A DNA stretch of 64,000 bases from Promethearchaeota archaeon (lineage in GTDB: Archaea; Asgardarchaeota; Lokiarchaeia; Sigyniarchaeales; SOKP01): positions 1-64,000 of the forward strand of contig JAHPZI010000014.1 of assembly GCA_019058295.1 (NCBI GenBank), in the 5' to 3' direction. This document shows positions 12,926 to 23,149 of this stretch, one piece after another. The notes under the pieces were generated by a model that worked only from the letters and a program-made list of their open reading frames with translations, did not search any database and had not been told where the DNA came from. Numbering within the stretch: the first letter of the stretch is position 1; the number at the start of each line of letters is the position of its first letter. The position numbers were made by a program, and so were the translations under genes.

Positions 12926-14671
12926 ATGATAATAAAAATAAACTCAATTGAGAGCACTATAGAAATTTTTTATGAAAAATATGTACATCTTCATGGATTC
13001 ATAAAGCTTGAAGCTGAAAGTGACGATAAAGAATATAGAATAATAATTCAAATCTTAAACGAGCAAACCATTATTGATTACGTGTTAACTCGTCAAAAAT
13101 TAAAAAATGTAAGGATGACAGATTATATAAAAGCTGAATTAGAGACTGAGCTTCAATATGTGATACAAGGGCGACCGATTATTTGTACTGAAATTGATAA
13201 AAAAACTAAGAAGGAAACGCATAAAACTCTAAATGTATTTTTCTTTATTGAAGATCTAATGGAAAAGGAAGTTTTAAAGCCCCATTCAATGAAGATATCA
13301 GAGATTCAAAAGGATAGAGCAATCTATTTGGAAAATATTTTTACTCCAGACGGGATATATATGGGAGATTTAGCATCAGAATCGAATGTAAAAGTTTTCT
13401 TTCCTTTGAAATATTTAATGTATCATTTCTTTATTGCGGGTGCAACAGGTCAGGGAAAATCCAACTTAAATCAAGTTTTTATTGATGGCTTACTTCAACA
13501 TAACGCAAACGTAATAATGAATGGAAAGGGGACAAAAGTTTCTATGCTCGCAATTGATATGCATGATGAATATGCATTAGGTTGTAATAATTATGGATTA
13601 TACCATATAATTAAAACATTGGATGTGAGCGCTGTTAAAAAATTAATTGGTAAATGGTTTTATCTCTATCCAAATAAAGGGCTCCCTCCTACAGAAGTAA
13701 AAAGTATGGCAGAACCATGCATAATTAATTATCAAGAGATAAAGCCCCAAGATCTCTTTGCTACGGGCTCATTCAACGAACTACAAGCTGGAGCTATACA
13801 TTCTGCTTATCATGATAATCCAAATGATTATATTGATAATCTATTAGATGACACTTATTTCCCACCAGGAAATCATGATCCTAAAACAATTTCAGCTATT
13901 AGAAGACGTCTTAACTGGTTGGAATATTCAGATATATTTCAATCAAATGCAAGTAGCAAACTACCATCGATTATTAAGAAGTTAGAAAAAGGAGGAATTA
14001 TCATATTTAATGTCTCGCTATTAAGAGATTTAGAGCAATTTTTATTTAATAGTGTATTAGCAAGGACTTTATTTGATATCCGTAAGACTTTAAAATCATC
14101 AACTGATTATTCTACTTTTGAGACAAAACTGGGTAAAGCGCTTCCTCAAAATTTCTTTGATAATTACAAGGCTAATTTGAAAAAGTTATATATTTCATCT
14201 GGAACAAATATAAAAGATCCCTATGATATGCCTATTATTATCTTTACAATAGAAGAAGCCCCTAGTATATTACGGCCAGAAATAATGAAATTTAGTAACG
14301 TATTCAAGGATATATCACGGCAAGGTAGAAAATTTAACTTAGGATTAGAAGTAATTTCACAGCAATATACTCCAATAGACGATACAATAATATCGAATAT
14401 GAATACTGTAGTGAATTTACCTTTAAGATCAGAAAAGGAAAAATCAGCAGCGTCAAAGATATTAGGGGGAGGGATTCAATATAGCGATATTGAATCTTTA
14501 ACAGGCACGAGGGGTATTGCTTTAATTTCTGGAATATGGTTAACCAACTTCCAAAAATTAAGAATTCCGTTATATGATGATTACTTTAAAGAAGTTTCAG
14601 AAAAATATTATATTGAATTTTCAAAAAAAATGAAATCACAAACATCAACTCCCCCAACAGGTCTCCCTTAA
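12926..14671 (+). CDS. herA: HerA-family helicase/ATPase
   Basis: Walker A GATGQGKS, DMHDEY, Walker B IEEA, arginine finger RQGRKF, SQ motif; upstream of nurA-mre11-rad50. Confidence 0.85.
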   Translation: MIIKINSIESTIEIFYEKYVHLHGFIKLEAESDDKEYRIIIQILNEQTIIDYVLTRQKLKNVRMTDYIKAELETELQYVIQGRPIICTEIDKKTKKETHKTLNVFFFIEDLMEKEVLKPHSMKISEIQKDRAIYLENIFTPDGIYMGDLASESNVKVFFPLKYLMYHFFIAGATGQGKSNLNQVFIDGLLQHNANVIMNGKGTKVSMLAIDMHDEYALGCNNYGLYHIIKTLDVSAVKKLIGKWFYLYPNKGLPPTEVKSMAEPCIINYQEIKPQDLFATGSFNELQAGAIHSAYHDNPNDYIDNLLDDTYFPPGNHDPKTISAIRRRLNWLEYSDIFQSNASSKLPSIIKKLEKGGIIIFNVSLLRDLEQFLFNSVLARTLFDIRKTLKSSTDYSTFETKLGKALPQNFFDNYKANLKKLYISSGTNIKDPYDMPIIIFTIEEAPSILRPEIMKFSNVFKDISRQGRKFNLGLEVISQQYTPIDDTIISNMNTVVNLPLRSEKEKSAASKILGGGIQYSDIESLTGTRGIALISGIWLTNFQKLRIPLYDDYFKEVSEKYYIEFSKKMKSQTSTPPTGLP

Positions 14672-14708
14672 TCAACTTTTTATTAATAATATACGAGGTG
14701 TATAAAAA

Positions 14709-15908
14709 ATCTCTTTTGACTTTGAATTAATCTCACTAGACAATTCTATTGAAAACAGACCAGAACGATCAATAGATCAAGAAATTAAACAATTCAAGGA
14801 ATATATAAAAGAGAGAAGGATTAAATGGACGGAAGAGGAAAAAATCGAATTAGAAACGGATAAATTTGATAGTGATGAAACTCTCAAAAACACTAATGCT
14901 CATTTTAGTGAAATGATTTATGAGATTATTGAAAATGAATTGCCCGATTATATAAATAAAGAATATAAGATTATTGGATTTGATGAAAGTTCAAATACTT
15001 TAAGTGGAACTTATGCCAGATTAGCCTCCTTCAAATTTGGTGAAGGTCAAGTTATACTTAAAGATGGAAAATATAAGATAGAAAAAATAATGTATCGACC
15101 TATCAGTAGTTATATAGAAGATAATGAACACAAGCTTATCGTTTATAAGACAGTAATAGAGAATTTTGTGAAAACCGTTAAAAGAGACTTTTATACTGGT
15201 AGTCTAAAAGGGAAAATTGATGACTTGGAAGATTGGTATGAAAATACCTATAAAAAAAAAATAGATGATCATATTAAAGGGCATGATTTTTATTATCCCT
15301 CATTAGGACATGTAGTTGATAGAATTAGAACTGCAGATGAAATTTTAAAATCGTTGATTAGAATTAAAGAAGAGAGCAATTGGGGTAAAAATAAAAATGT
15401 TATTTTTCTTGGAGATGGGATTCAGATGTTTCGACAACATATTTTTCCACCCTCATCTTTCATAGAATTTTTTTATAGATTCATTGTTGATTATGATATT
15501 AAATATTATAGTTTCTCCAAGACTTGCAGATTAAGAGATGCTCAAGGTAATTTTATTTTACCAATTTGGTCAGAAATTTTAAAAACTAAAAGATTTTTAG
15601 TGGAATTACCAGATCTATCAGTTTATACTAAAAGTAAAGCCTATATAACAAGATTACAGGAAGAAAGTTCAGCATTAAGATTTGATATTCCAGATTACTT
15701 GGATACAAAAGATGCAAGTTATATTTTAAAAAATTTAATTCCATACTCCCCAAGAGGATATCCATTATGTCTAATTGGTGCTCATGAGGCAAGTACATTA
15801 TTGGTTTCAGAATATAATAAATTAGAGAGTAAATTTATGGAATTAAAATTTGATCCAAAAATTAAAAGATATACTGAATCTTGGAGGCATAAAGTGCTTG
15901 GTGAATAA
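14709..15908 (+). CDS. nurA: NurA-family nuclease (probable ATC start at 14709; first ATG at 14913)
   Basis: IIGFDES, LGDG, FSK and GYPLCLIGAHEAS motifs; frame open from 14706; GAGGTG 8 nt before the ATC. Confidence 0.75.
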   Translation: MSFDFELISLDNSIENRPERSIDQEIKQFKEYIKERRIKWTEEEKIELETDKFDSDETLKNTNAHFSEMIYEIIENELPDYINKEYKIIGFDESSNTLSGTYARLASFKFGEGQVILKDGKYKIEKIMYRPISSYIEDNEHKLIVYKTVIENFVKTVKRDFYTGSLKGKIDDLEDWYENTYKKKIDDHIKGHDFYYPSLGHVVDRIRTADEILKSLIRIKEESNWGKNKNVIFLGDGIQMFRQHIFPPSSFIEFFYRFIVDYDIKYYSFSKTCRLRDAQGNFILPIWSEILKTKRFLVELPDLSVYTKSKAYITRLQEESSALRFDIPDYLDTKDASYILKNLIPYSPRGYPLCLIGAHEASTLLVSEYNKLESKFMELKFDPKIKRYTESWRHKVLGE

Positions 15909-15953
15909 TAGATAATTATGAATTTTATAGTTTTATGAAAAGGAGTATAAATT

Positions 15954-17261
15954 ATGGTTAAAATTATTCATATGGCAGATACCCATTTAGGATATAGAGA
16001 AGGAAGAGGTACTATAAATAAATGGGCTATACCGAATTATTCAAAACCTTACGAACAAGAAATTTATGATGCATTTTTAAAAGTTATAGATGATGTCTCT
16101 AAACTAAAGGATGTAGATTTCTTGGTCCACTGTGGAGATATGTTTCATTTACCTAGTGTTAATAGATCATATCCCCCTCCAGAACCCGCAAGACGAGTTT
16201 TAAAAACTGCATTAGATACTTTCTTTAAAAATTCAAATAATAAAGTACCTTTTATCTATGTTGAAGGAAATCATGGTGTGTTTAAAGTATATGAATATAC
16301 CCCGTTTGAATCACATATTAGCAAAGAAAAATATCCTAATCTCTATTATTACAAAGATCGAGATTTAATAGAAGCAATAAAAACGAATAACCCTTTAAAA
16401 CTTGAATTTAATGAAAAAAAAGTTTGTTTTTATTTATTTCCTTATTTTGAATTTAAAAGCCATGCTGAGTATAAGAATGCTTACAATAATTGGATAATTA
16501 ATCAAAAACCTGATGATAATGATTATATTAATATTGCAATTGCTCATGGGTCTAAATTAGATGAAACGCTACACAAAAAAGTAAGCTCAGATGATTTTGG
16601 ATATGACTATATTGCTCTAGGACATGAACACGGGTTAAAATCAGAATCAAGAACTCATTATTACGCTGGATGTTTATTGCCCATGAATTTTAAAGAAATA
16701 ACTGAAACTCAGGGATATTTAATTATAAATATTGAAGAGAAAACGAGAAAATTAAAGGTTGAAAAAGTTTTTACTGATAAAATGTTAACAAGACCGTTTG
16801 AAATAATTTCTATTAATATTTCTCCTCAAGAAAGCTCAGAAGAATTAAGAAATAATGTGAATAAAGAATTAATTAACTATATTTCTAAGGATGGATTTGA
16901 CCCTAAAACATCAGCAAGATTAAAAATGAATTTTACTGGAGAATTGACATTCGAAAAACTCTGGCAAATAAATGATTTAATGGTAAAACTTAGAAGGGAA
17001 TGCTTTTCTCAAACAGATAAATATAATATATTGCAATTAATCTGGCAAGTTTCTGATATTTCCGAAACAATTGAGGATGACATTAGTCCTGGAATTATTG
17101 AGGATTATATTTTGGAAAAACCAGAAGAAGAATTTAATAATTTTGTTAAAGAGAAATTGACAGAGGAAAGCACACAGTTCAACGTTGAAAAGCTAACTCA
17201 ATTTGGATTGAGTGCGATAAAAAGCGCTTTAAGAATAATGGATAAAGAAGAGGAGGTTTAA
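15954..17261 (+). CDS. mre11: Mre11/SbcD nuclease
   Basis: ADTHLG, CGDMFH, GNH, AHG and YIALGHEH phosphoesterase motifs. Confidence 0.9.
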   Translation: MVKIIHMADTHLGYREGRGTINKWAIPNYSKPYEQEIYDAFLKVIDDVSKLKDVDFLVHCGDMFHLPSVNRSYPPPEPARRVLKTALDTFFKNSNNKVPFIYVEGNHGVFKVYEYTPFESHISKEKYPNLYYYKDRDLIEAIKTNNPLKLEFNEKKVCFYLFPYFEFKSHAEYKNAYNNWIINQKPDDNDYINIAIAHGSKLDETLHKKVSSDDFGYDYIALGHEHGLKSESRTHYYAGCLLPMNFKEITETQGYLIINIEEKTRKLKVEKVFTDKMLTRPFEIISINISPQESSEELRNNVNKELINYISKDGFDPKTSARLKMNFTGELTFEKLWQINDLMVKLRRECFSQTDKYNILQLIWQVSDISETIEDDISPGIIEDYILEKPEEEFNNFVKEKLTEESTQFNVEKLTQFGLSAIKSALRIMDKEEEV

Positions 17262-17269
17262 TTAAAGCT

Positions 17270-19348
17270 GTGCAAATAACCAAACTTATTTTTAAAAATT
17301 TTATGGGTTATAAACAATTAAATCTGCCTGATGGAGAAGATGACTTTCCTGAGGGTTTAATTCTAGTGAGTGGGAAAAATTCTTATGGGAAATCTACTAT
17401 ATTAGAAGGTATTTTATTTGCTTTTTTTGGGTCAAAAATTTTTATTGGTAGAAAGGCTGATTCTTTTATAACCTATGGTCAAAATAAAGCAGAATTGAGT
17501 GTATATTTCTCGCTTGATAATATTAAATATTATATATATCGTAAATGGGGCAGATCTGGAAGTGCCAGTGCGAAACTCTTTGAATTAGATAAAAAAGGAA
17601 TGTACCGGGAAATTAAAAAATTTAATATCGAGAAATTTTTTGAAATTTCAAAAGACCAAGCTATGAGTACTGTATTTGTAAGACAAGGAGAAGTAGAAGA
17701 ATTGGCCAATATCAAGGGTGCTAAACTAAGAGAAATGATTATCGATTTATTTCGTCTTAATATAATTGACGATTCATTAAAATATCTAGATACAGAATCA
17801 AAGTCAAAAACTCATGAAAAGGAAAAATTTGAAAAATCTCGTGTTCCAATTGAAAGAATAGAAGAAGATATAAAGCGTATTGAACAGGAAAACAATGATA
17901 ACAAGAAAATTATCTCAGAAAAAGAAAAAATAATGCTCGAATACGAATCGAGACTTAAAACCTATCCTTCAAACGAATTAATTTCCAATTTAGAGAACTT
18001 GTATAAAAATAAAGAAATAACTGAAGAAAAATATAAATCTTATAAAAATGATTTTGAAACGAAAATTAAGAATACTGATTTAAATTTAGAAGATTTCACA
18101 TCTTTAGAAAAAATTAAGAATAAATTTGATATCTTAGATAACTCAAAAAGAGAAATTGAAGCTAATAAAGAGAATTTAGATAAAAAAAAGCAAGCAACTG
18201 TTAAAGGTATGGGAAAAACTAAAGGTAGAGTTGAAGATATTTCAAAAATAATTTGTAAAATGGAAAAAAGTTTACAATTTACTGAAAATGAAACCGCCCT
18301 CTGTCCTACATGTCAAAACGAACTTACAAAAGAGCACTATGATACTGTTATTCAGAATTTTAATGAAGAACTTGCCCTAAATCAGAAAAAAATTAAGGAA
18401 ATATCTCAATTAATAAATGATAACAATAAAGATATTGAGAAATGTCAACAAGAGTTAGATAAAATAAACGAACAAATTACAATTATTCAAAATCTTAAGA
18501 AAGACTTTGAGAATTATCAAAAATATGATATAGAATTAACGAATATTCAAAAAGAACTATCCGATTTTTTAAAAAAAAATAAAGAGAGGTTCAAGGATTC
18601 AAGTCCTAAGGGAATAAAGGATATTTCTCTCGAAATAGAAAGATTAACAACGGAATTGAAATTGATTAAGAAGGCAATAACAGAAAAAAGAGATAATATT
18701 AAAAATAATCAAACTAGAATTACGGAATTGGGCAATGAAATCAAAAGAATGAAAGATTTAGAGAAGAAAATTGGCGAGATTGAAATTGATCTTGAACATA
18801 TCATTAAAGCAAAAGAATTCGTACGACGATTTGTAACGGAATATATGGTTGTTAAGCGTCTTGTAAAAAACATTACGTTGAAAGCGGATAGATATATTAA
18901 GGATTTTACATCAGGTCAATATGGAGAACTTATGCTAGATTTAACAGGAACTAAAAAGACAGGACTTTCTCTTAAAATTAAGGACTATTTTAATGGTGAA
19001 TATGAACCTATCGAGGTCCTTTCAGGAGGCGATCATACTGCGTTAGGTATGGCTTTAAGATTAGCTATTTGTGAATTAATGAGCATAATTCGTCCAACTA
19101 AAGAGTCTCCAAAAAAAAATCCAAAAATCAATTTTCTTTTATTAGATGAACCTTTAGCAGCTTTAGATGAGGTTAGGAGAGAGCGAATATTAAAGCATCT
19201 TACAAAATCTAAAGCATTTTCTCAGATTTTCCTAATAACTCATACATCTATCCCGTCAGATATTCAAACGCATAAAATACTAGTAGAAAAAGATCATTCC
19301 ACAGGAATTAGCCATGCGAGATTTGAAAAGTTAAGCGTAATTTTATAA
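17270..19348 (+). CDS. rad50: Rad50/SbcC ATPase
   Basis: GKNSYGKS, Q-loop VRQG, central CPTC zinc hook (aa 345), signature LSGGD, LLDEP, ITH. Confidence 0.9.
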   Translation: MQITKLIFKNFMGYKQLNLPDGEDDFPEGLILVSGKNSYGKSTILEGILFAFFGSKIFIGRKADSFITYGQNKAELSVYFSLDNIKYYIYRKWGRSGSASAKLFELDKKGMYREIKKFNIEKFFEISKDQAMSTVFVRQGEVEELANIKGAKLREMIIDLFRLNIIDDSLKYLDTESKSKTHEKEKFEKSRVPIERIEEDIKRIEQENNDNKKIISEKEKIMLEYESRLKTYPSNELISNLENLYKNKEITEEKYKSYKNDFETKIKNTDLNLEDFTSLEKIKNKFDILDNSKREIEANKENLDKKKQATVKGMGKTKGRVEDISKIICKMEKSLQFTENETALCPTCQNELTKEHYDTVIQNFNEELALNQKKIKEISQLINDNNKDIEKCQQELDKINEQITIIQNLKKDFENYQKYDIELTNIQKELSDFLKKNKERFKDSSPKGIKDISLEIERLTTELKLIKKAITEKRDNIKNNQTRITELGNEIKRMKDLEKKIGEIEIDLEHIIKAKEFVRRFVTEYMVVKRLVKNITLKADRYIKDFTSGQYGELMLDLTGTKKTGLSLKIKDYFNGEYEPIEVLSGGDHTALGMALRLAICELMSIIRPTKESPKKNPKINFLLLDEPLAALDEVRRERILKHLTKSKAFSQIFLITHTSIPSDIQTHKILVEKDHSTGISHARFEKLSVIL

Positions 19349-19498: not shown

Positions 19499-20899
19499 TT
19501 GCGATTGAAAATGACACAAATAAGTTATTTAGATTTCAACCTATTATTAAAATCATTAACTGTTTCTCAAATTAAGGAAATCATCGATGATTATAATCAA
19601 CAAATTATTAATGGTGATTCAAAAGCTAAGAAATTGAAGGGTTACTCTGGATTAAAGAAAGACGAATTAATTGAATTTGTAGATTCTTCTCTAAGTGAAA
19701 AAGATAAGTCATATTTTTATGAGATTTTTGAACCAGAAATATCAAAAAAACTAATTTCAGATGCACTTTTACTGATAGTAGGAGAACACAAGACGGAAAG
19801 GATACAGAATGCAGGAATTTTATCTGGTGGTAAGGGATATAGAATCTGGTATACAGGAAAATATGGATCTCATAAAGCATTAGTAGAGGTACTTAAAGAT
19901 GTTAATAGAATGAACTGCAACTGTAAGATAGGAAAATTTGGAGGAATTTGTCTTCATCAGATGGCGATTTTTTTAATGTTATATAGTAAAAATGCAATTA
20001 AATTGGAAGATTTTCCTTTTAAAGTAGATCATTCACAGTTTAAATCTATAAAAAAGAGATTAGAATTACTCGCTACTCAATCGCTATTCAAGGAAGAACC
20101 ATCAATAATACTATCGAATGATTATAAAATTTATGTTAATGGTGACCTTGTTACTTATGAATGGGCGGGAGATTTTGCCGGAAAGAGAACGAGAGACATG
20201 TCTGAAGAAGAAGAAGATGTTGATACATGGATATCGAACAAAATAGTTGAAGTTATGTTAAAACATATAAAAGTTAAAACAAAAGAAGGGAAATCAGAGA
20301 AAATTATTCTAGATAATTATGGTATTATTCCGAAGATCATTGAAAATCCAAAATTAGTAAAAAAAATCCTTACTAAATTCAAGAAACTTGAAGATCCTGA
20401 ATTACCGACTGAAGAAAGTCAACTTGAAGCGTTTCTGAAAAAAAATCTTAAAGAGAGTAGTATAGAAATGGATATTGATCCTCCTTTTAATGCTTATGAG
20501 GGAGAAGAAGCCTTTCTATTTGTAAGTTATACACATAAAGACAAATCAAAAGTGTATCCAATTATTAAAAAACTCTATGATAAAGGAATTAATATTTGGT
20601 ACGATGAGGGTATACCCCTCAGTACAGACTGGTGCAATACACTTGCCGAGAAAATAATGGATAGTAAAATCTTTCTTTCTTTCATATCTAATCATGTTCC
20701 TGAATCTGAAAATACTCAGGATGAAATTCAATTTGCGATAAATGAGGGAAAAACATTTCTTGCAATTTATCTAACCGATTCTGGGTTAACTCCTGGTTTA
20801 AAAATGCGAATGAGAAGAATCCAAGGTATTCAAAAATTTGAAATGGAAGAGAAAAGATTTTATAATAAATTATTAAATGAAATAAATCGATTACTTTAA
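19499..20899 (+). CDS. HeH/Rho-N-like + SWIM zinc finger + TIR domain protein (likely ATG 19511)
   Basis: LKSLTVSQIKEI...GYSGLKKDELI; CNC..GGICLH; C-terminal FLFVSYTHKD...IWYDEGI...QDEIQFA. Confidence 0.8.
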   Translation: MRLKMTQISYLDFNLLLKSLTVSQIKEIIDDYNQQIINGDSKAKKLKGYSGLKKDELIEFVDSSLSEKDKSYFYEIFEPEISKKLISDALLLIVGEHKTERIQNAGILSGGKGYRIWYTGKYGSHKALVEVLKDVNRMNCNCKIGKFGGICLHQMAIFLMLYSKNAIKLEDFPFKVDHSQFKSIKKRLELLATQSLFKEEPSIILSNDYKIYVNGDLVTYEWAGDFAGKRTRDMSEEEEDVDTWISNKIVEVMLKHIKVKTKEGKSEKIILDNYGIIPKIIENPKLVKKILTKFKKLEDPELPTEESQLEAFLKKNLKESSIEMDIDPPFNAYEGEEAFLFVSYTHKDKSKVYPIIKKLYDKGINIWYDEGIPLSTDWCNTLAEKIMDSKIFLSFISNHVPESENTQDEIQFAINEGKTFLAIYLTDSGLTPGLKMRMRRIQGIQKFEMEEKRFYNKLLNEINRLL

Positions 20900-20957: not shown

Positions 20958-21152
20958 TTATAAATCTCGAGCTTTTACTGTTTTTCTGCCGTTTCCTTTT
21001 GCTCGACCCACAGCTTTGTCTAGCATGCCCATGATTATACCATTCAAACTATCGCCATCTAAAACGGCACTACTGGTATTGCATCCTTTAGATTTGATAA
21101 ACTCCCTAACTTTAGATTTAACAAATAGGGGTTCTGAACCTTTTTTAGCCAT
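20958..21152 (-). CDS. Short histone-fold protein with truncated alpha3 (alpha3/face-to-face or Bd0055-like type)
   Basis: LFVKSKVREFIK...NTS...AVGRAKGNGRKTVKARDL; ends right after RxTxxxxD. Confidence 0.85.
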   Translation of the reverse strand: MAKKGSEPLFVKSKVREFIKSKGCNTSSAVLDGDSLNGIIMGMLDKAVGRAKGNGRKTVKARDL

Positions 21153-21567
21153 AATTTATTCCCTCTTTTAATTAATGTTTTTATATTAATATTTAATGGT
21201 TTTGTAAAAAAATTCTAAATACTATTAATTAATAATTTGTATAATTGAGTTTTTAAATGTTATTGAAATTTATTGTTAAATCTTAGTTACATCACACTTT
21301 TTTAGGTTGAATAATATTTTCTTAAGGATTAAAAAATCGAAAATGTAATCGCAAAATGTATTTTCATGAAGGATTACATACAAAAAGGATGTAAACTTTT
21401 GAGAGATATAAATTCTTGATTTGAGCATTTAAAATATTTCTTTTTCTTGATAATAAAGCAAAAATTGAATTGCTATCGATATTATATAAGATAAATTTCT
21501 CCAATTTAGCAAAAAAAAGAAAAAAAAATATAAATTTTTAGCTATTATTTAAAACATTCCTTAGGAT

Positions 21568-21684
21568 TTAAGGGGCAACCTCGCCGCATCCTGGAATGCT
21601 TACTCCAGCCGCAGCCATACTTAAACCATAAGAAACTGTTAATAGAATAGCTAAAGCAACCAACACTTTTTTGCTTAACTCCAT
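21568..21684 (-). CDS. 38-aa small protein: signal peptide/TM plus 12-aa tail
   Basis: Manual translation MELSKKVLVALAILLTVSYGLSMAAAGVSIPGCGEVAP; GGAAGTGA upstream; GC-richer than its flanks. Below the ORF-track cutoff. Confidence 0.7.
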   Translation of the reverse strand: MELSKKVLVALAILLTVSYGLSMAAAGVSIPGCGEVAP

Positions 21685-21861
21685 TAAATTCACTTCCGTT
21701 AAAAAACTTACTTTTAATGGTGACTAGAGGTTTATAAATAATTATTTAAAGTTCACATAAAAATAGAGATCATTAAACATAAAGATTAAATAGGAAATGA
21801 AAAAAAAAAATATTGTTTTTTTGTTTTACTGAAGAGAAATTAAATATTTAACTTCTCTGGT

Positions 21862-22140
21862 TTATTTTGGTGGAGCAAGGACAATCTCTATACTTGATAC
21901 GTTATTATTTTGTCCATTTTCTCCTTCTAATTGTTCAGTAGATAATCTTATATCTTTATATTCTGTGCCTTTTAAAAATCTGTTGCGTAAAATTTCGCAT
22001 ACATCGACAGCATGAGAAATAGCTCTGCCACGTGCCTTAACAGTGCATTCTTCACCTTTGTTAAGGATCATCATCGTCGCCATCACATAATTCATGGTGG
22101 GACGTCGGCCAACAAACACAGCATTTTCGTCTTTGGACAT
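21862..22140 (-). CDS. albA: DNA/RNA-binding protein Alba
   Basis: VFVGRRPTMNYV...VKARGRAISHAVDVCEI...NVSSIEIVL. Confidence 0.95.
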   Translation of the reverse strand: MSKDENAVFVGRRPTMNYVMATMMILNKGEECTVKARGRAISHAVDVCEILRNRFLKGTEYKDIRLSTEQLEGENGQNNNVSSIEIVLAPPK

Positions 22141-22375: not shown

Positions 22376-23149
22376 TTAGAAATCAAAATCGTCATCTGTA
22401 CTCTTCACTTGATCAACTTTCTTTATTTGTTTTCTTTCATCTTTTATTTTGAGTTCTTCATCTAAAAATTCTGTTTTTTCCATTTTTTCTTTCTTTTCCT
22501 CCTCCTCTTCACCTTTAATAATATCCCAAATTAAACTTAGAATAAGAGGAACTGAGAGAATTATAAGAATTGGAATAAATAATCCATAATCTGTTAAAAC
22601 TATTTTAACCCAGCCAATGTACGGAATTTTGCCAATTACTACTCCTCTAATTCGCTGTTCTGGGAACCAATCTTCATCCTTGTCATCATTAGCATCCCCT
22701 TTAGTTCGAAATTCATATCGATCTTTTTCATCATTATATCTTATACCAACGACCCGGTGAACAATAGGTTCATCAGGTGCTCCCTCCCAAGGAGCGTCAT
22801 AAACAACAACATCTCCCAATTCTATGTCCTCAGGATCTCTCCCTTGTAGAAATAATAAATCCCCTGTATTAATCTTTGGTGCCATTGAATCAGAAACTAC
22901 TACCACCATTGGAGTATCGGTATTTAATGCTACCGACAATATGACATAAAAAAGAAAAGATCCGAAAAAAGCAAAAACTATTAAAATAACAGCAACTATA
23001 ACTTTTTTTTTTGTTATTGGCTTTTTTGTTTCTTTCGATTTGTCTGTTGATTTTATACGATATTTTCTTTGCATATTAATAAAAAAATCTTTCTTTGGGC
23101 TATTAAATAAAAAGCTCAATTTAAATTTTCTTTTTATAATACATATCAT
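22376..23149 (-). CDS. sec11: Signal peptidase I, archaeal/ER Sec11 type (start likely ATG 23074)
   Basis: PMVVVVSDSMAP, PIVHRV, TKGDAN and IPYIGW motifs. Confidence 0.9.
   Translation of the reverse strand: MICIIKRKFKLSFLFNSPKKDFFINMQRKYRIKSTDKSKETKKPITKKKVIVAVILIVFAFFGSFLFYVILSVALNTDTPMVVVVSDSMAPKINTGDLLFLQGRDPEDIELGDVVVYDAPWEGAPDEPIVHRVVGIRYNDEKDRYEFRTKGDANDDKDEDWFPEQRIRGVVIGKIPYIGWVKIVLTDYGLFIPILIILSVPLILSLIWDIIKGEEEEEKKEKMEKTEFLDEELKIKDERKQIKKVDQVKSTDDDFDF

Follow-up and report, generated by a model that had tools for sequence, protein, structure and literature searches.

A conserved Lokiarchaeia micro-gene that probably encodes a nine-residue peptide signal, and its candidate Lrp-like partner

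Does a 38-codon reading frame lying between alba and a histone-like gene in a Lokiarchaeia genome encode a real product, and if so, what might that product be for? The frame lies at 21568-21684 on the minus strand of the window, the 64,000-nucleotide stretch of contig JAHPZI010000014.1 analysed here, and the initial annotation described it as a signal-peptide ORF in a GC-richer island, preceded by a Shine-Dalgarno-like motif, within the minus-strand order sec11, alba, peptide, histone. These observations held, with the exception of the proposed 12-residue product discussed below. The ORF translates as described, its GC content is 0.36-0.42 against 0.16-0.20 in the flanks, the Shine-Dalgarno-like motif is at 21690-21696 with the same core in all three paralogs of the genome, a TATA box lies at 21743-21750, and T-tracts at 21511-21528, all on the minus strand, form a probable archaeal terminator of what would be a monocistronic gene, a function inferred from sequence. 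A TATA-like box is found 35-100 nt upstream in 81 of 88 family loci, with a conserved G four bases before it. Of the neighbours, all on the minus strand, sec11 (22376-23074, start codon uncertain) scored above the cut-off of TIGR02228 and alba (21862-22140) was matched at E 1.6e-16, whereas the probable histone-fold protein (20958-21152) is a weak call (NF043032, E 0.006, below cut-off). Further along the window, a 466-residue protein with HeH/Rho_N-like, SWIM-like and C-terminal TIR domains (19499-20899, plus strand) is convergent with the histone gene, and four co-oriented ORFs (12926-19348, plus strand) look by inspection like HerA, NurA, Mre11 and Rad50.

The frame is coding and not a product of chance. 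The source genome (G000 in our numbering) holds two further dispersed copies, on contigs C9 (24645-24761, minus) and C28 (111998-112114, plus), whose DNA is about 83% alike with the similarity ending at the ORF boundaries. The three proteins are 97-100% identical, with identical leaders, yet the genes differ at 16-18 synonymous codons, out of about 28 synonymous sites, and at only 0-1 non-synonymous codons. A structured non-coding RNA, which had been named in advance as an outcome that would overturn the ORF, is not indicated by the tests run, as no Rfam hit overlaps the locus, fold z-scores are only -0.5 to -1.7, and variation falls at third positions. The tail-coding RNA (21571-21620, minus) can form a hairpin, and one relative's intron sits in its loop, but the hairpin is not significant against shuffles and is largely dictated by the codons. 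No selenocysteine-type TGA appears at the Cys, and no intron-split fourth copy was found in G000. Searches of Pfam and NCBIfam returned no family match for the peptide, and the ESM Atlas gave only unnamed 38-residue clusters. RNA sequencing runs held only 5-7% of the words and covered relatives' alba at low depth with nothing over the peptide, too little to inform on expression, and a predicted four-copy complex scored 0.02, which is not evidence either way.

Relatives carry one to four copies (24/61 genomes), and profile searches of 400 Asgard genomes gave convincing hits only within one Lokiarchaeia order. Hits outside it were partial, with E 0.001 or worse, and two that were re-scored did not pass. 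A search of 1.8 billion proteins gave 27 hits, all of this type. Four relatives' copies (L094 of genome G001, L095 of G009 with two inserts, L105, and L106/L107, L numbers denoting loci) contain five inserts of 29-33 nt at four positions, whose removal restores the frame and the tail. Two of these have a perfect bulge-helix-bulge fold (0/20,000 shuffles), one is nearly perfect (1/20,000), one is moderate and one is weak, and they explain several apparent Cys-less database proteins. The copy in the window has none. Truncated or degenerate leader-only remnants at L097 (G007:C73), L104:835-939 and L102 suggest frequent birth and death of copies.

Where, then, would the precursor be cut? Iterating the profile brought in divergent members with the same promoter, leader and terminator but different tails, many of them without Cys. 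Across 75 distinct intact members the stretch from the conserved Lys6 to residue 29 has gaps in only two, and the small-X-small rule for signal peptidase I is satisfied after residue 29 in 74/75 members and in 32/33 of those outside the commonest, Cys-containing subtype. After residue 26, the site favoured by the initial annotation, it is satisfied in 37/75 and 5/33, respectively. What follows residue 29 is 8-11 residues long and ends in Pro in 67/75, length variation lying almost entirely after the site. The 29-residue leader of this gene (21598-21684, minus) has a basic N-region and ends in the small-X-small site at residues 27-29, and the AlphaFold model gives a single helix over residues 5-28 followed by a disordered tail. 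The predicted product is therefore the Gly/Pro-rich 9-mer of residues 30-38 (21571-21597, minus), with a terminal Pro, and not the 12-mer first proposed, although the cleavage itself is inferred from sequence alone.

The tail evolves in the manner of a code. For pairs whose leaders differ at 5-9 positions the tail is identical in 4/5 within-genome pairs but in only 6/408 between-genome pairs, although the numbers are small, and synonymous divergence in the tail is about 0.5 within genomes, which argues against gene conversion. G000 and its close relative G007 differ by the same Ala/Val change at codon 36 in two separate orthologous pairs, each keeping its own paralog-specific synonymous bases. 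Furthermore, some genomes have tandem arrays of two or three peptide genes with different tails, as at L137 (G239), L116 (G235), L138 (G221) and L217 (G199), where the arrays are divergent from one regulator gene of the type described below and two tails are shared between genomes.

The genomic setting in the window is incidental. The order sec11-alba(-histone) is present in most family genomes with or without the peptide, and the peptide sits there in four of 30 alba loci' genomes besides G000's own type (G007, G024, G012, G011), other copies lying in unrelated places. Sec11 is the only signal peptidase I found in the genome, making it the probable processing enzyme by default, but its adjacency is not peptide-specific. 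A neighbouring CPBP protease is limited to G000 and G007 and has six paralogs, and uDENN/longin neighbours have 44 paralogs in G000, so that neither is retained as a specific partner. No archaeosortase was found, and none of eight SPASM hits lies next to a peptide copy. The copy in the window is an orphan, promoter-bearing extra copy.

Wider neighbourhoods revealed a more convincing partner, a protein of about 1,200 residues beside the peptide in 13 loci, which the initial annotation could not have seen as it sits beside a paralog on another contig. It is single-copy in G000 (C28:108227-111850), 160 nt upstream of the C28 paralog, and lies within 1.2 kb of 21 of 88 peptide copies found without reference to it, in 17 genomes of 6 genera, with divergent (11), upstream (6) and downstream (4) arrangements. 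It occurs in 117/134 genomes of the family, often as several paralogs, but was not detected in five peptide-bearing genomes of two other families (78-91% complete), and 67 of the 88 copies, including that of the window, have no regulator next to them, although some loci have short flanks. In the family of G039 and G043, which lacks the giant protein, a GNAT gene lies between or near peptide genes (L131, L090, L091) and a Roadblock-domain gene recurs nearby, as it does in G239. At L136 (G017:C64:78-3821) a peptide gene with an internal stop is convergent with a giant regulator gene that also has two stops, reflecting either joint decay or hidden introns.

The G000 protein has no Pfam match at E<=0.5, and a PDB sequence search found nothing under E 0.4. 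Its predicted structure (pLDDT 85.7, pTM 0.86), however, has four units of HTH followed by RAM and an N-terminal alpha/beta domain. The best solved match is the Lrp-fold enzyme NirDL (Foldseek E 8e-4; Z 12.8, rmsd 5.1, 294 aligned), and matches in the Atlas are archaeal HTH_AsnC proteins (TM 0.59-0.73 by target). The N-terminal 190 residues resemble zincin peptidases only weakly (Z 5-6), and the zincin His ligands are replaced, with Arg at the first position in 42/44. An unannotated 8-TM protein of about 275 residues (in G000, C28:113195-114019, which is L148:7696-8520, minus), present in 117/134 family genomes and often next to a DUF998-like membrane gene, lies near peptide genes in eight genomes and within about 10 kb of the giant gene in at least 14 more, making it a candidate importer or receptor.

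Other paralogs of the giant protein carry leaderless versions of the same peptide, of 8-10 codons. A first blind scan of regulator flanks for ORFs of 24 residues or more found only 2/60, because most partners are leaderless. Regulator loci chosen blind carry leaderless Gly/Pro ORFs of 7-15 codons in 9/58 cases against 0/400 control genes on a strict filter, and in 30/57 against 20/400 on a relaxed one, where about three of the 30 would be chance. These ORFs are mostly divergent from the regulator gene and often have a good Shine-Dalgarno motif, and several begin Met-PG, in the register of residues 30-32, and end in Pro, as at L206, L209 and L177, which independently supports the 9-mer register. 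On a FastTree tree with midpoint root, regulator clades share peptide types, which shows co-inheritance and not binding. As the genomes are related, these counts overstate independence.

We propose a model that most reasonably fits these observations, and which we favour with only moderate confidence. The 38-mer would enter the Sec pathway and be cut after residue 29, probably by Sec11, releasing a 9-mer outside the cell. The peptide would then be taken up again, possibly through the linked 8-TM protein, and bind a cavity between the RAM domains of the four-module Lrp/AsnC-like regulator, changing transcription in a lineage-specific, density- or kin-dependent way. This would be the logic of the Rap-Phr and RopB-LCP systems (PMC10518010) with unrelated, non-homologous parts. 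Our analysis establishes that the gene is coding and under purifying selection, that the leader is fixed and the tail variable, that peptide and regulator genes are paired in the genome, and that peptide type matches regulator clade. Cleavage is an inference we hold to be very probable and a functional peptide-regulator pair one we hold to be probable, while expression of the gene is likewise inferred, and export and re-import, direct binding, DNA binding by the giant protein, the uptake route and the target genes remain speculative. The interpretation first offered is partly supported: a real precursor with a signal-peptide-like leader, a short released peptide and Phr/pheromone-like logic fit the evidence, whereas the 12-mer, a central role for the Cys, which many members lack, and the link to sec11, alba and histone do not. 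Several points sit uneasily with the model. No Opp-type binding protein (PF00496) or PTR2 transporter was found in G000, a genome that is 79% complete, leaving uptake unexplained, the closest solved fold is an enzyme and not a regulator, and a 29-residue signal is long and its leader more conserved than disposable signal peptides usually are.

Other readings are possible, although we consider each of them unlikely. The tail may be a ligand of the giant protein that acts within the producing cell, or tethered to its membrane, for example reporting translation or Sec/protease capacity, rather than a message between cells. The leaderless versions, which have no export signal, the absence of a recognised importer in G000 and the presence there of an M50 and six CPBP intramembrane proteases would suit this view, but a basic N-terminus followed by a hydrophobic helix predicts an outward-facing tail by the positive-inside rule, the (-3,-1) site is kept in 74/75 members, and bacterial leaderless peptides do act between cells (PMC10518010). 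About as unlikely is a precursor of a modified peptide (RiPP), with the giant protein, or the GNAT in another family, as the modifying enzyme and a secreted metabolite such as a metallophore or antimicrobial as the product. A conserved leader with a variable core, the Lrp-fold enzyme NirDL as best structural match, the weak zincin resemblance and the GNAT flanking peptides in G039/G043 favour it. Against this, no residue that could be modified is common to all cores, the zincin ligands are replaced, leaderless cores have no leader to be recognised, no recurrent radical-SAM, YcaO, Lan or protease-transporter cluster was seen in neighbourhood clustering, and one peptide type per clade of the giant protein fits a receptor better.

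Least likely is an uncleaved, abundant single-pass membrane microprotein, structural or channel-like, with gene copies kept for dosage. The fixed-length helix, the leader identity among the G000 paralogs and the consensus promoter are compatible with it, but it does not explain the leaderless copies of the tail, the linkage to the giant protein, or tails that match within genomes while leaders diverge. A lipidated peptide would require an invariant lipobox Cys directly after the hydrophobic region, whereas the Cys here is about 15 residues after the hydrophobic core and absent from many members. The Asp/Glu at core position 7-9 with a threading tail, and Thr at leader position -2, that mark a lasso peptide are not matched, as the acid is not conserved and at most three residues follow it. 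An AgrD/AIP thiolactone would need a conserved Cys, a C-terminal charged follower and an adjacent AgrB or MroQ-type protease, but there is no follower and the CPBP neighbour occurs only in G000 and G007.

In its broadest form the model would give Loki-type Asgard archaea an independently evolved, gene-encoded peptide communication system, in which exported and leaderless peptides of 8-11 residues carry lineage-specific codes read by a giant multi-Lrp receptor, helped by a dedicated 8-TM membrane protein, with some genomes sending or reading several codes through tandem arrays and multiple receptors. We regard this as possible, if somewhat less likely than not. We found no description of this peptide family, of its partner or of peptide signalling in Asgard archaea, nor of any gene-encoded peptide signal in archaea, in the papers searched, an incomplete collection. 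The present work names a synthesizable 9-mer and a single candidate receptor in the archaeal group closest to eukaryotes, making the question of whether Asgard archaea talk with peptides testable in vitro without a culture, and would extend the Lrp/AsnC fold from amino-acid sensing to peptide sensing. Should only a cell-internal role hold, it remains an undescribed micro-peptide/regulator pair.

Comparison with known systems places these features in context. Haloferax volcanii quorum sensing (PMC12240190, PMC13464002) is likewise density-dependent signalling in an archaeon, but uses a two-component system, and we found no gene-encoded peptide named there; a 2026 paper calls archaeal quorum sensing largely unexplored (PMC13464002). 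Lrp/AsnC (feast-famine) regulators and the Lrp-fold NirDL/AhbAB decarboxylase (PDB 4czc, 4ch7) share with the model of the partner the HTH and ferredoxin-like RAM units, and NirDL also the tandem fusion, but the partner has four units in one chain plus a degenerate zincin-like N-domain and no Pfam hit, and known effectors are amino acids or tetrapyrroles rather than gene-encoded peptides. The Rap-Phr, PlcR-PapR and Rgg-SHP systems of Firmicutes, the RRNPP family (PMC10518010), share a short pro-peptide with secretion signal and cleavage site, here by sequence only, a small C-terminal mature peptide, lineage-specific codes, and a gene next to a cytosolic regulator, which here is true within the family (21 of 88 copies) and of the C28 paralog but not of the copy in the window. 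We do not count the present system as a member. The partner is three to four times larger and its model is dominated by Lrp-like alpha/beta units, no TPR receptor was listed in fold searches in which the helical part 420-625 was not treated alone, the mature peptide is 8-11 rather than 5-8 residues, Gly/Pro-rich with a terminal Pro, many copies are orphans, no Opp was found in the 79% complete G000 genome, and the host is an archaeon. Finally, the leaderless communication peptides typified by RopB-SIP (PMC10518010) are likewise ORFs of 8-10 codons, mostly divergent from their regulator gene, with distinct codes per clade, and found beside about half of the regulators (49% there, 30/57 here). 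Those peptides are hydrophobic and bind a TPR domain, whereas the leaderless forms found here are Gly/Pro-rich and belong to a family that also has signal-peptide-bearing forms, such as the gene in the window with its 29-residue leader.
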